From: a virus
Lineage: Duplodnaviria > Heunggongvirae > Uroviricota > Caudoviricetes
DNA: 23,442 nucleotides
Strand: one strand, 5' to 3'
Virus record (IMG/VR): IMGVR_UViG_2648501361_000004
The notes beneath the pieces are model-generated. The model was not told the DNA's origin. It did no database searches and was given only the letters and a program-made list of their open reading frames with translations. Each line of letters begins with the position of its first letter. The first letter of the stretch is position 1. This document shows, piece after piece, positions 20,196 through 23,442 of this stretch. The translations under genes were made by a program, and so were the position numbers.

Positions 20196-20615
20196 TTATT
20201 TGTATGAAATCAACGAGTTAAGCTCCCTCTCATTTAGAGATTGGAATCTTTTTTCAGTTATATCAATGATGGCTGGCAATAGTTTTTTTACCTTCTCATG
20301 ACCATCAGGTTTAATGATAGCAATGATCTGGATATGAATTGGATATGTGTTGTGTACCGCAAATATCAAAAAGTTATCGCTAACTCTACGATGTATTGGC
20401 GTTGTTCTTAACCAAGGATCATCTACTCCAGGGATCCTGATGTGCGACTTGTAAATTCCCGATAAGACGGCGTGATGGTTTCTCTCAAACCCACCAATCT
20501 TACCAAGATAAGCTGAAACGGTGCCTCTGTTTTTGTAGTTTGCAAGAGCCTTCGCAAAGTATTGTTCTAATGGTCCAGCCGCTGCATCTACAACAATGCT
20601 TATGCGGTTTTCCAT
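20196..20615 (-). CDS. YafO-toxin-like protein (candidate type II toxin / mRNA interferase); family assignment tentative
   Basis: 139 aa; the C-terminal core VSDNFLIFAVHNTYPIHIQIIAIIKPDGHEK resembles, as recalled, the conserved YafO-family core (SD..LVY...LLIAIL.P..H). ATG start lies 16 nt upstream of the preceding gene's stop (coupling). Confidence 0.55.
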   Translation of the reverse strand: MENRISIVVDAAAGPLEQYFAKALANYKNRGTVSAYLGKIGGFERNHHAVLSGIYKSHIRIPGVDDPWLRTTPIHRRVSDNFLIFAVHNTYPIHIQIIAIIKPDGHEKVKKLLPAIIDITEKRFQSLNERELNSLISYK

Positions 20616-21181
20616 TTTGGTGCTTCCATGCCAAATCTTTTATGTGAATCTTCAACTGATTTCTTGAAGGAAGCCAACTCTTCTTCAGTGAACTCTTCAG
20701 GTTCAGCATATGATAGTGGTATGTGCTGCATTGCTAGCGTCACAAGCCCCATTGTTAGCCTTTTGTATTCTATAAAAGTATTGATTGAGTGGTTTTTCAT
20801 TGTTGTAAGAGTTGACATATGGGGCTTCCACGCATCGCTGTTCTCAGCGATGAAGAAGGTATACAACAGTTTCGCGATACCATAATCAAGCTTAGATATC
20901 TGATCGTTCAACATATCTACATCGTCATGTTGAATATTAAGTGAGGAAATATCTTCTTCTGTACCATTACTTAATATGTCAATGAATGTAATGTACTTTT
21001 TGCAAACTTCCTCTACAGGTGACATAACGCAGTAGATCTTGCTAAGAGCTTCAGAAGCCTGTTTTTTAGACAAAGAGCCGCTATGACTGCGATCAAAGTC
21101 TGAAATTGAACGCTCGATAGATGTTGATATGTCAGAAAAAACGTTTTCAATTTTTCCTGGCTCTTGATTCAGGATGGCCAT
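20600..21181 (-). CDS. Hypothetical protein, first gene of the accessory cassette (candidate partner/antitoxin of the YafO-like gene)
   Basis: ORF open 20600..21199 (GTG). ATG at 21181 with upstream AGG is preferred (~193 aa). Predicted helical, acidic protein with no recognised domain. AT-rich codon usage unlike the structural genes. Confidence 0.6.
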   Translation of the reverse strand: MAILNQEPGKIENVFSDISTSIERSISDFDRSHSGSLSKKQASEALSKIYCVMSPVEEVCKKYITFIDILSNGTEEDISSLNIQHDDVDMLNDQISKLDYGIAKLLYTFFIAENSDAWKPHMSTLTTMKNHSINTFIEYKRLTMGLVTLAMQHIPLSYAEPEEFTEEELASFKKSVEDSHKRFGMEAPKWKTA

Positions 21182-21241
21182 AACGCCTATCTCAATCACA
21201 ATGTATACCTTGTTATTTTATATCAACGAACAAACATTGAC

Positions 21242-21490
21242 CTATCTGGTCTCGTACATTTTTTTCAGGGTTTCAAACACCATCTTCTTAACAATTTCTG
21301 CTTGCTGATCAGCCATACGTTCTGCTTCGTCACGGTAACCTGCAATCGGTGATGGTTTTGATAGCGCATCCTGAACGATTTGTAATAACTCAGAGTTCAT
21401 TGACCTTCCGTTAGCCTCGGCTCTTAATTTCAATTTTTCTCTTACTTCCAAAGGCATACGGAAGTTAAAGTGCGGATCATCTCTAGCCAT
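21242..21490 (-). CDS. mnt: Mnt repressor (ribbon-helix-helix)
   Basis: 82 aa, MARDDPHFNFRMPLEVREKLKLRAEANGRSMNSELLQIVQDALSKPSP..., near-identical to P22 Mnt as recalled. Confidence 0.9.
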   Translation of the reverse strand: MARDDPHFNFRMPLEVREKLKLRAEANGRSMNSELLQIVQDALSKPSPIAGYRDEAERMADQQAEIVKKMVFETLKKMYETR

Positions 21491-21513: not shown

Positions 21514-21777
21514 CTAACTTTCGTCTTTATTGTTGCCATACATGCATTTCAACTTCTCAACATCATGTTCAAGATCTATCAATCGTGATGCTATAGTTGC
21601 AAGGTCTAGTGCTTGAATGTGTTTATTTTTTTCGGTCCATGCTTCAAGTGCAGCGACCATCTCAGCATTTAATGAACGAGAATTAGCCTCAGCCAGTTCA
21701 ATAAGACGTTCCTTTATCTCTACAGGAAGCCTCAGATTCACTTGAGGGTTTTTGTACTTACGATCAGACATCGGCAC
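21514..21777 (-). CDS. Second Mnt/Arc-like ribbon-helix-helix repressor with C-terminal extension
   Basis: 87 aa; PQVNLRLPVEIKERLIELAEANSRSLNAEMV is the Arc/Mnt RHH signature. Reads divergently from arc, directly upstream of mnt. Confidence 0.8.
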   Translation of the reverse strand: MPMSDRKYKNPQVNLRLPVEIKERLIELAEANSRSLNAEMVAALEAWTEKNKHIQALDLATIASRLIDLEHDVEKLKCMYGNNKDES

Positions 21778-21799
21778 ACCCTGAATAATTTTTTACCAC

Positions 21800-21857
21800 A
21801 GGATATGTAGGTGTCTATTGACTATCAATGCGTACCTAAATACTATGTATGCGTACC
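21800..21857. promoter_or_regulatory. Divergent back-to-back promoters with candidate operators (immI control region)
   Basis: Plus strand: -35 TTGACT 21818-21823, 17-nt spacer, -10 TACTAT 21841-21846 (Pant-like). Minus strand: -35 TTGATA (complement of 21823-21828), 17-nt spacer, -10 TATCCT (complement of 21800-21805). Direct repeat ATGCGTACC at 21828-21836 and 21849-21857 (21-bp spacing) and a palindrome GTATG-N7-CATAC overlap the promoter. Confidence 0.45.
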
Positions 21858-21876
21858 ACATACAGCGGAGGATGCA

Positions 21877-22017
21877 ATGAAGGTAAAAACACTGCGTATG
21901 CCAGAGAAGTTAGAAAAAATCCTTGAAGAGAAAGCAAAGGAAGAGTGTCGATCGTTTAGCGCAGAAGTAATTAAACGGGTGCTGGACAGCTTGAAGAGAG
22001 AGGGGGTGATGGTATGA
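21877..22017 (+). CDS. arc: Arc repressor (ribbon-helix-helix)
   Basis: 46 aa from ATG 21877 with GGAGGA RBS: MKVKTLRMPEKLEKILEEKAKEECRSFSAEVIKRVLDSLKREGVMV, parallel to P22 Arc (RSVNSEIYQRVMESFKKEG). The track ORF 21811..22017 is an upstream extension. Confidence 0.8.
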   Translation: MKVKTLRMPEKLEKILEEKAKEECRSFSAEVIKRVLDSLKREGVMV

Positions 22018-22217
22018 GTAAAGAATGTTGTTTCTGCGGCATTAGCGAATCAGACGCTGATCAAACATACATTTACTCTAAAGAAACAGGTCGGATGCTG
22101 TGTAGTGACTGCGTGTTGGACATCATAAGATACAAGCATCTTGGATGTTCTGCCAGCATTAGCAATATAGGTGAAGTATACGAAGGGAAAGATATAACTG
22201 ATAGAGCAGAAAGTTGA
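22014..22217 (+). CDS. Small Cys-rich (zinc-ribbon-like) protein between arc and ant
   Basis: 67 aa with CCFCG...CSDC...C. ATG overlaps the arc stop (ATGA), suggesting translational coupling. No homologue recognised. Confidence 0.55.
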   Translation: MSKECCFCGISESDADQTYIYSKETGRMLCSDCVLDIIRYKHLGCSASISNIGEVYEGKDITDRAES

Positions 22218-22280
22218 AGCCCCAACTGCGGGAACAGTCAGGGCTTCGGTATCGTAAAACCACGCATAGGAATTAACGAC

Positions 22281-23204
22281 ATGAAAAGTATAGCAACAGC
22301 AGTATCTACTATCAATGTACCATTCCACGGCGCAGAGCTTTATGTTGTCAATCACAACGGCGAACCGTATACCCCAATGAAACCTATCGTTGAGGGAATG
22401 GGGCTAGACTGGAAATCTCAACATAAGAAGATTTCTCAACGATTCTCGAATGGTATGGTGGAAATCACCATACCTTCTGCCGGTGGGGTGCAAGCCATGA
22501 TTTGTATGGCTTTACGAAAATTGGCAGCTTGGTTGAACAGCATCAGTCCTAACAAAGTCCGCCCTGAAATCCGCGACAAGGTAATCCAGTATCAGGAAGA
22601 GTGTGACGATGTGCTCTACGAGTACTGGACTAAAGGCCATGTAGTTAACCCACGCAAAGCTAAAAAGGCGTTGCAGGGTAAAATCACCACTGAACAGCAG
22701 GAAGCCATTAAACAACTCGTCATGAGTCGCGGTCAGTCTCTGCCAAAAGAAAAACAGGCTAAGGCGATGATCACCATGTGGTCGTCACTGAAATCCCATT
22801 TTGGATGTTCGTACAAAGAAATCAGTGAGGAGCAGTTTACCGAAGCACTATCACTTGCAGCTCGAGTTCCACTTGAAGGTGAGTTCATTGGCAAACAAGA
22901 GAAGAAAACCAACGAGCTTTCTGCAAAAGAAGTAAACAGCCTTGTATGGCTATGGGATTATGCCAACCGCTCACAGGCATTATTCCGCGAACTGTATCAG
23001 GCGCTAAAACAAATTCAATCGAACTATTCCGGCAGATGCTACGACTACGGTCATGAATTCTCGTATGTTATCGGAATGGCGAGAGATGTTTTAATCAACC
23101 ATACACGAGATGTTGATATTAATGAGCCAGACGGACCAACGAATCTTTCCGCATGGATGAGACTTAAGAATAAAGAATTACCTCCTTCAGTACATAACTA
23201 CTGA
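22281..23204 (+). CDS. ant: Antirepressor Ant (P22 Ant-like)
   Basis: 307 aa, last gene of the arc operon as in P22 immI, followed by an intrinsic terminator. Identification rests on size, position and general antirepressor N-terminal character. Confidence 0.75.
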   Translation: MKSIATAVSTINVPFHGAELYVVNHNGEPYTPMKPIVEGMGLDWKSQHKKISQRFSNGMVEITIPSAGGVQAMICMALRKLAAWLNSISPNKVRPEIRDKVIQYQEECDDVLYEYWTKGHVVNPRKAKKALQGKITTEQQEAIKQLVMSRGQSLPKEKQAKAMITMWSSLKSHFGCSYKEISEEQFTEALSLAARVPLEGEFIGKQEKKTNELSAKEVNSLVWLWDYANRSQALFRELYQALKQIQSNYSGRCYDYGHEFSYVIGMARDVLINHTRDVDINEPDGPTNLSAWMRLKNKELPPSVHNY

Positions 23205-23304: not shown

Positions 23305-23315
23305 ATGACAGACAT
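23305..23315 (+). pseudogene. Tailspike gene (P22 gene 9-like) 5' end, interrupted after nt 11 by IS1
   Basis: ATGACAGACAT (Met-Thr-Asp-Ile...) with GGAG RBS 8 nt upstream matches the start of P22-family tailspikes as recalled, at the expected position after ant. The reading frame is then broken by the IS1 inverted repeat. Confidence 0.5.
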
Positions 23316-23442
23316 GGTGATGCTGCCAACTTACTGATTTAGTGTATGATGGTGTTTTTGAGGTGCTCCAGTGGCTTCTGTTTCTATCAGCTGTCCCTCC
23401 TGTTCAGCTACTGACGGGGTGGTGCGTAACGGCAAAAGCACC
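23316..23442 (+). mobile_element. IS1 insertion sequence, left end (continues beyond the window)
   Basis: 23-bp terminal inverted repeat GGTGATGCTGCCAACTTACTGAT at 23316-23338, followed by the canonical IS1 left-end sequence and the insA start. Confidence 0.9.
23371..23442 (+). CDS. insA: IS1 InsA (N-terminal part, truncated by the window end)
   Basis: GTG start at IS1 position 56; translation MASVSISCPSCSATDGVVRNGKST matches InsA. Confidence 0.85.
   Translation, partial: MASVSISCPSCSATDGVVRNGKST

Follow-up and report, generated by a model that had tools for sequence, protein, structure and literature searches.

This report addresses a short candidate control region at positions 21798-21864 of a viral DNA stretch of 23,442 nucleotides (nt) (Caudoviricetes; IMG/VR record IMGVR_UViG_2648501361_000004), and this whole stretch is referred to here as the window. 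Positions 1-23315 of the window are Enterobacteria phage CUS-3 (CP000711.1) at 100% identity, running from CUS-3 position 28775 to 5461 on the reverse strand, and the phage source of CP000711.1 is Escherichia coli K1 strain RS218. The control region sits in the "ant moron" or immI region, with the DNA-transfer gene on one side and the tailspike gene on the other. Here, a 105-base-pair (bp) intergenic region (21772-21876) separates two divergent genes of the Arc family of ribbon-helix-helix (RHH) proteins, upstream of the antirepressor gene ant and the antisense RNA sar. The gene RHH87 (21514-21771, minus strand) encodes a Mnt-like repressor of 85 amino acids (aa) from its ATG, or 87 aa from an upstream GTG. 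The gene RHH46 (21877-22017, plus strand) encodes an Arc-like repressor of 46 aa and is preceded by a Shine-Dalgarno sequence, GGAGG (21867-21871, plus strand), which was read directly from the sequence; a GGAG-like motif is retained at this place in all relatives. The ant gene is the cargo of the switch and is controlled by it. In the GenBank record of CUS-3, positions 21790-22271 are labelled only "bsq2; boundary sequence", and both RHH46 and the cysteine-rich open reading frame (ORF) behind it, ORF67, are unannotated, while the RefSeq label of the 46-aa gene in E. coli genomes is "Arc family DNA-binding protein".

The intergenic region contains two candidate sigma-70 promoters, which were located by a promoter scan and by the comparison of natural variants. 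The rightward promoter, P(+), consists of TTGACT (21818-21823, plus strand) and TACTAT (21841-21846, plus strand), with a predicted start at about 21853, 24 nt before the ATG of RHH46. The leftward promoter, P(-), consists of TTGATA on the minus strand (TATCAA on the plus strand, 21823-21828) and TATCCT on the minus strand (21800-21805), with a predicted start at about 21793. Each gene thus has one promoter upstream of it, with a 17-bp spacer and agreement with the consensus at 9 of 12 positions in both cases. The -35 hexamers overlap by a single base and make up the palindrome ATTGA-CTA-TCAAT (21817-21829), and the promoters stand back to back with their -10 elements outward and their predicted starts about 60 bp apart. 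The initial annotation had placed TTGACT and TTGATA back to back at 21818-21828, exactly where they are found, and had described divergent overlapping promoters; the two promoters are upheld by conservation, but their arrangement is back to back and not the overlap of Pant and Pmnt in phage P22.

The support for these promoters comes from the pattern of conservation. The 172 instances of the region collapse to 40 distinct versions, 35 of which align in register and are referred to as the 35 haplotypes. Both -35 hexamers are nearly invariant across them; five of the six positions of the P(+) -35 never change, and the remaining position differs in a single haplotype. The P(-) -10 reads TAnnnT in 34 of 35, with T1, A2 and T6 kept and the three middle bases free (TATCCT, TACTAT, TAATCT, TATTCT and others). 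Fixed outer positions with a free middle are a known signature of the sigma-70 -10 element. The P(+) -10 reads TAnTAT in 32 of 35 (TACTAT in 24, TAATAT in 8), the others being TGCTAT (2) and CACTAT (1), and TAATAT is the form found in Arsenophonus, Xenorhabdus and Photorhabdus. The P(-) promoter would be the weaker of the two.

Superimposed on the promoters are three 10-bp boxes, named L, R1 and R2, which lie in 21-bp phase and approximate the palindrome TAGGTACCTA. Box L (21808-21817) lies inside the P(-) spacer and abuts the P(+) -35, and box R1 (21829-21838) lies inside the P(+) spacer and abuts the P(-) -35; the two are mirror images about the double -35, with their center at 21823. Box R2 (21850-21859) covers the predicted P(+) start. 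If the core is divided into 21-bp units starting at 21804, all three are in register in each of the genera. Box L reads TAGGTGTCTA in CUS-3, TAGGTATCTA in most relatives and, in Photorhabdus temperata, the perfect palindrome TAGGTACCTA. Box R1 is TGCGTACCTA, of which CGTA (21831-21834) is invariant in the 35 haplotypes. Box R2 is TGCGTACCAC, embedded in the dyad TGTATGCG-TAC-CACATACA (21846-21864); its left side is invariant, and the core varies most at 21858-21860. Across the boxes, position 1 is T and position 5 is T in 105 of 105 instances, and position 6 is A in 104 of 105. The bases that are invariant beyond promoter needs are CGTA in the P(+) spacer, GT.TGC.TA after the P(+) -10 and T..GTA..T in the P(-) spacer. 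A box of 10 bp with palindromic symmetry has the size expected for one RHH dimer, and the 21-bp phase, equal to two helical turns, would place the boxes on one face of the DNA. Position 21813, which is position 6 of box L, is G in CUS-3 and its identical copies and A in all other haplotypes. The G weakens box L and also changes TAGATA on the minus strand to TAGACA; the promoter scan combines this hexamer with AAAAAT in an alternative minus-strand promoter (21817-21788).

The strongest repeat in the region joins R1 and R2. The direct repeat ATGCGTACC occurs at 21828-21836 and 21849-21857, 21 bp from start to start, and extends to ACTATCAATGCGTACC and ACTATGTATGCGTACC, which match at 14 of 16 positions (21821-21836 versus 21842-21857). 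The 105-nt intergenic region was shuffled 2000 times with its dinucleotides preserved; an exact direct repeat of at least 9 appeared in 35 of the shuffles, and a 16-mer pair with at least 14 matches in one. The sequence TGCGTACC occurs twice in the entire 40-kb CUS-3 genome, both times in this region. The 9-bp repeat had been reported in the initial annotation at these positions and proposed as a pair of RHH operators. The repeat is present and its conservation is operator-like; however, the two 9-mers correspond to R1 and R2 with an offset of one base, and they belong to a set of three phased boxes from which box L had been missed. A palindrome, GTATG-N7-CATAC, had also been noted, and it is present at 21847-21863, extends to TGTATG-N7-CATACA (21846-21864) and covers the predicted P(+) start. 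It does not span the plus-strand -10 as had been said, since it begins on the last base of TACTAT. Because no part of the core varies more than the right arm of this palindrome, the direct repeat is the better supported of the two features. That early interpretation was largely right but incomplete.

Conservation across genera is stronger evidence against chance than the repeat statistics. The 66-bp core (21798-21863) of CUS-3 is 77-92% identical to the corresponding DNA in prophages of Arsenophonus, Xenorhabdus, Photorhabdus and Chimaeribacter. Over the same comparison, the neighboring RHH87 gene is 52-58% identical at all positions and 34-41% at third codon positions, which is saturated, and its protein is 44-55% identical. 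No reading frame across the core is conserved among the relatives. A coding explanation, namely a 68-aa GTG-started ORF at 21811-22017, was rejected, as the relatives contain stops or have another frame open. The retention of the core next to a saturated gene, and with no conserved frame, therefore indicates strong purifying selection on the DNA itself. Since the repeat is nearly invariant from E. coli to Photorhabdus, at positions that a promoter does not constrain, it is operator-like.

The association with the two repressor genes is constant, in that a pair of RHH repressor genes flanks the site in each of more than 150 instances. Relatives of RHH87 are found in Arsenophonus, Phlomobacter, Xenorhabdus, Photorhabdus and Chimaeribacter and in at least 80 viral contigs. 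All 80 of the RHH46 relatives in viral contigs lie beside a gene of the 85-aa type, with the box core in the upstream region, and there were no informative chimeras among them by which a box could be assigned to a protein through co-occurrence. The module is frequent in prophages, and most of it is carried by 56 of 5426 complete E. coli genomes. Sequenced phages rarely have it; in the phage collection, CUS-3 alone covers the module query, and Salmonella phage SEN22 matches at 80%.

The RHH87 protein matches Pfam Arc at 40 bits (cut-off 20.4), and among solved structures its best match is Mnt (1mnt, E 1.9e-5). Its recognition strand is PQVNLRLP, with the Gln-Asn-Arg triad of Arc. This strand is invariant in 14 of 14 aligned homologues, Chimaeribacter included, and reads PQVNLRMP in one relative from a viral contig. 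An invariant recognition strand and invariant boxes suggest a match between the protein and the sites. A single-sequence structure model of RHH87 (predicted local distance difference test 74, predicted template modeling score 0.33) is of limited quality and was used for the C-terminal helix only, which spans residues 57-79 and is amphipathic and heptad-patterned. This helix resembles the tetramerization helix of Mnt. The RHH46 protein matches Pfam Arc at 33.8 bits (cut-off 20.4), is 36% identical to P22 Arc over 39 residues and finds the Arc structures at E of about 1e-3; from this sequence comparison, it is a true Arc homologue.

A third gene of this family lies next to RHH87. This P22-type mnt (21242-21490, minus strand; 82 aa; Pfam Arc 96 bits, Repressor_Mnt 56 bits) is intact, has its own Shine-Dalgarno sequence and encodes a protein 83% identical to P22 Mnt. 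Residues 1-13 are identical to those of P22 Mnt and include the strand that sets Mnt specificity. Searches for the P22 operator Omnt, AGGTCCACGGTGGACCT, allowing 3 mismatches in the window and 4 in the whole CUS-3 genome, were negative, as was a genome-wide search of CUS-3 for Oarc, ATGATAGAAGCACTCTACTAT, allowing 5 mismatches. The earlier statement that the sequence here differs from the P22 operators thus holds at these mismatch limits. Mnt itself had been listed among the candidate ligands, and this part was not borne out. Since the recognition residues of Mnt are kept and CUS-3 has no P22 Omnt, the 85-aa and 46-aa proteins are the likely ligands, and the P22-type Mnt probably does not act at the control region.

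Taken together, it is likely that 21798-21864 is the bidirectional promoter-operator region of an immI module that is not of the P22 type, with operators for the 85-aa and 46-aa repressors. From the anatomy of the sequence and its conservation, which are observed, we infer the promoters, the pairing of box and protein, the oligomeric states and the regulatory signs of the following scheme. P(+) would drive RHH46, ORF67 and ant, and P(-) would drive RHH87 and the orphan P22-type mnt. In the lysogen, RHH87 would be made from P(-), would oligomerize through its C-terminal helix and would occupy R1 and R2 cooperatively, shutting P(+) and keeping ant off, and on box L it would limit its own synthesis. 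In P22, repression of Pant favors Pmnt. Because the polymerase sites of P(+) and P(-) abut, silencing of the stronger P(+) should likewise free P(-). After infection, RHH46 would be the first product of P(+) and would bind the same or overlapping boxes as a negative feedback, like Arc in P22, where operator-bound Arc represses the divergent promoters Pant and Pmnt (PMC2724298).

A more specific pair of linked ideas is offered tentatively, and as a pair we hold it to be rather doubtful. The first is that one box type may be read by two paralogous RHH repressors of differing oligomeric state, a long maintenance repressor bearing a coiled coil and a short feedback repressor; P22, in contrast, uses two proteins with two unrelated operators. 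Parallel support for a shared box comes from the module of the E. coli MS196-1 prophage, which has the same design with other boxes and one recognition strand in both of its repressors. The second is that replacement of a module may leave the displaced Mnt-type gene, promoterless, behind the new one, and that the displaced gene may be kept for silencing the antirepressor of invading or co-resident phages of another immI type. Three facts bear on this second idea: CUS-3 has an mnt of P22 specificity and no P22 operator in its genome, MS196-1 has a gene of the CUS-type 85-aa class with a mere 17 nt of its leader, and modules with P22-type Oarc and Omnt circulate in E. coli, where the matched stretch of mnt is identical to the CUS-3 orphan.

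Several observations weigh against the proposed promoter-operator region and its two ligands. Hexamer matches of equal quality are as frequent in shuffled sequence (5 found versus 4.6 expected in a 2.3-kb stretch), and therefore the hexamers alone carry no weight. The boxes are unequal, with R1 and R2 invariantly keeping a left TGCGT and not the palindromic TAGGT, and this could mean two half-site types for two proteins and not one shared box. In two haplotypes, the R1-R2 spacing is 20 bp and not 21 bp, together with a 16-bp promoter spacer. The linker before the C-terminal helix of RHH87 is short in the model, which bears on whether one tetramer can span 21 bp. The recognition strand of RHH46 varies by lineage (KTLRMP, SSVRFP, VSVRMP) with no matching operator change, and therefore the RHH46 site is not assignable by covariation; the sole correlate of the strand types is C or A at 21843 in the -10, with a counter-example in locus L090. 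Additionally, the searchable literature yielded no binding, footprint or transcript-start data for the CUS-3-type module, and no published characterization of this type of immI module was found in it.

The inequality of the boxes leads to a layout with two operators, as in P22, which we consider unlikely. Here, the 17-19-bp start-site dyad GTATGCG-TAC-CACATAC (21847-21863) would be the operator of an 85-aa tetramer and the counterpart of Omnt, the mirror pair of L and R1 would be the 46-aa operator, repressing both promoters as Arc does, and the identity of R1 and R2 would be partly incidental. In size and promoter position, the dyad agrees with P22 Omnt, which is palindromic over 17 bp and sits at the Pant start; the outer GTA...TAC of the dyad is kept in all genera, and its symmetry is better in some relatives (GCG-TAC-CGC in E. 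coli Z1323 and others). The symmetry of L and R1 about 21823 would suit such a pair, and a second type of half-site could lie behind the TGCGT that R1 and R2 invariably have on the left. In the dyad, however, the right arm is the variable stretch 21858-21860, which is replaced in loci L076-L079, and the 14 of 16 match between R1 and R2 would be left unexplained. The MS196-1 module also speaks for one site type, as both of its repressors carry the same recognition strand. At the other extreme, the conserved bases could serve RNA polymerase only, as hexamers and UP-like or discriminator elements, with the repeats as by-products. Each repeat does overlap or abut a promoter element, and ACTAT is present in both the -35/-35 junction and the -10. 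This reading is nevertheless very improbable. The spacer sequence of a sigma-70 promoter is normally free, yet none of the 35 haplotypes departs from CGTA in the P(+) spacer or from TGC.TA at +1, while the middle of the P(-) -10 varies freely. A pair of RHH repressor genes is also present at every instance, and ant needs silencing in lysogens, as is established for P22, where ant is kept off.

Binding of the control region by the P22-type Mnt is extremely unlikely, even though its gene is an intact member of the Arc/Mnt family, with its own Shine-Dalgarno sequence, immediately downstream of RHH87 in the same operon. Its first 13 residues are those of P22 Mnt and CUS-3 offers no site of that kind, as described above; moreover, the gene is missing in most relatives of the module, and the boxes are still kept. 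The probability that the palindromes act as RNA, either as a 5' hairpin on the ant-operon transcript or as a terminator for leftward transcripts, is close to negligible. A terminator scan does list a minus-strand hairpin (21864-21846), which has a T-poor tail. However, folding of both strands gave z-scores of +0.38, +0.10 and -0.58, no better than shuffles, a transcript from P(+) would include only half of the dyad, and the variation occurs without compensatory pairs. A scan against Rfam matched sar only.

The orphan position of the P22-type mnt can be followed in the sequence. The homology of the CUS-3 gene to P22 stops exactly at the start region of P22 Pmnt; together with the absence of Omnt and Oarc from CUS-3, this makes the gene a promoterless passenger behind RHH87, with which it is probably co-transcribed. 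The same mnt/RHH87 junction is carried by 45 of the 5426 complete E. coli genomes. E. coli MS196-1 provides the mirror case, in which an RHH87-type gene with only 17 nt of its own leader follows an Mnt-type gene of another sort. In E. coli CFSAN061770, Oarc and Omnt of the P22 type are intact, and a 130-nt match to the CUS-3 orphan mnt is 100% identical there, comprising the first 111 nt of mnt and the leader. Besides the window (21242-21490), these observations cover L009 (1466-1717) and L181 (1590-1720). Such orphan mnt-type genes may provide cross-immunity against the antirepressors of other phages, or they may be the mere scar of module replacement.

The remaining genes of the module follow RHH46 on the plus strand. 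ORF67 (22014-22217) encodes 67 aa, matches phrog_7150 over its full length (E 3.4e-50) and has a CxxC...CxxC pattern; its ATG overlaps the RHH46 stop codon (ATGA). Searches of ORF67 against Pfam and PADLOC gave no match, and the gene is absent from most relatives of the module. A full-length antisense RNA sar (22212-22279, minus strand; Rfam RF00262, 84.6 bits versus a gathering score of 43, E 1e-17) lies opposite the ant ribosome-binding site, and the beginning of ant contains a promoter-like site with a 10 of 12 match (22315-22287, minus strand). In its terminator segment, sar shares 97-100% identity with P22 and epsilon34, although the arc-like gene upstream is unrelated in DNA. The ant gene itself (22281-23204, plus strand) matches Pfam P22_AR_N at 155 bits and P22_AR_C at 101 bits, and it is annotated as ant in CP000711.

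Two further features were observed at the borders of the module. Only 11 nt of the tailspike gene (ATG at 23305) are present before the CUS-3 sequence ends, and the final 127 bases of the window (23316-23442) are the end of an IS1 element, with a 100% match to IS1 in thousands of plasmids; a cloning-vector origin of these bases was considered and rejected on this ground. As the window leaves CUS-3 for IS1 inside the tailspike gene, the endosialidase tailspike is disrupted by IS1 here, unlike in the deposited CUS-3. On the other side, a 139-aa ORF (20196-20615, minus strand) has a Pfam match to the YafO toxin family (43.6 bits, E 3e-11), and it is overlapped and preceded by a 199-aa ORF (20600-21199, minus strand) with no family match. 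Within the ant moron, the two may form a toxin-antitoxin-like pair; a PADLOC scan of the neighboring ORFs returned coiled-coil noise only and nothing convincing for this pair.

The P22 proteins Arc and Mnt are the reference systems for the recognition of DNA by beta-sheets and for antirepressor control. A natural sister switch with different operators would provide a comparison for the evolution of RHH specificity and of switch wiring. According to the 2008 comparison of phage epsilon34, arc appears to be missing from CUS-3, which would have to control ant in another way (PMC2629481). Relative to that description, the CUS-3 record is corrected, as the "boundary sequence" contains two small genes, one of them Arc-like, together with sar and the control region. 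Judged on strong comparative evidence, CUS-3 very probably carries a differently wired, deeply conserved variant of the P22 immI switch that keeps ant silent. Prophages of the CUS-3 type occur in K1 and uropathogenic E. coli, where the switch would influence induction and cross-induction, although the practical consequence is modest.

The CUS-3 module resembles P22 immI in its organization. In both, a short control region lies between divergent RHH repressor genes upstream of ant, a small Arc-like repressor comes first in the ant operon, a longer Mnt-like repressor reads the opposite way, and sar covers the ant ribosome-binding site. Operators, or candidate operators in CUS-3, lie in the spacer of the ant promoter and on its start site. 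With this gene content (arc-like, mnt-like, ant and sar), the module belongs to the P22 immI kind. The two differ in the control region, however, where the CUS-3 sequences are unrelated to the P22 operators and consist of three related boxes in 21-bp phase, as opposed to the two unrelated operators of P22. The P22 Pmnt -10 abuts the Pant -35, with starts about 36 bp apart, whereas the CUS-3 promoters share a -35 base, with predicted starts about 60 bp apart. Additionally, the Mnt-like protein of CUS-3 has the Arc-type Gln-Asn-Arg recognition strand, and an extra cysteine-rich gene stands between the arc-like gene and ant.

Other antirepressor genes, including those of the Gifsy phages, 186 Tum and SPC32H, are controlled by LexA and are likewise silenced in the lysogen by a promoter-bound repressor. 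In CUS-3, LexA control was rejected, as the intergenic region has no CTGT-N8-ACAG within 2 mismatches and thus no LexA box; control would instead be exerted by phage-encoded RHH proteins. The multi-site RHH operators, such as the met-boxes of MetJ, the CopG operator, the heptads of the omega repressor and the NikR half-sites two turns apart, consist of short phased subsites, symmetric or repeated, with one dimer each, and the dimers bind cooperatively on one face of the DNA. These operators belong to unrelated regulons and have unrelated sequences, so the likeness is one of principle only and no membership is claimed; NikR-like half-sites were searched for and none was found. The same multi-site principle has been described for CopG and Arc (PMC2724298).

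A parallel to the CUS-3 module is the immI-like module of the MS196-1 prophage, which encodes a 79-aa Mnt-like protein and a 46-aa YlcI/YnfO-family protein. It shares the gene order and the sar-ant segment with CUS-3. A palindromic box, CTACACAGTGTAG, precedes TTGACT and is followed by two CACGGTGTAG boxes, which cover the -10 and the start at a spacing of 21 bp, and the left box is again the best palindrome. It differs in the box sequence (CACRGTGTAG), in the distance of the first box from the second (36 bp, not 21 bp) and in its recognition strand, PLGIRIP, which is one and the same in both repressors. In a distant module, upstream of an RHH87 relative in L019, a metagenome-assembled genome of the Armatimonadia, three boxes of the GGACCACGGTGGTYC type, close to the P22 Omnt sequence, lie at intervals of 26 and 23 bp, the first two on either side of TTGACA, and the repressor there starts MSRDDPQFKLRLP and is Mnt-like. 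A three-box layout around the ant-side promoter seems to be widespread, and the two-operator layout of P22 may be the exception.

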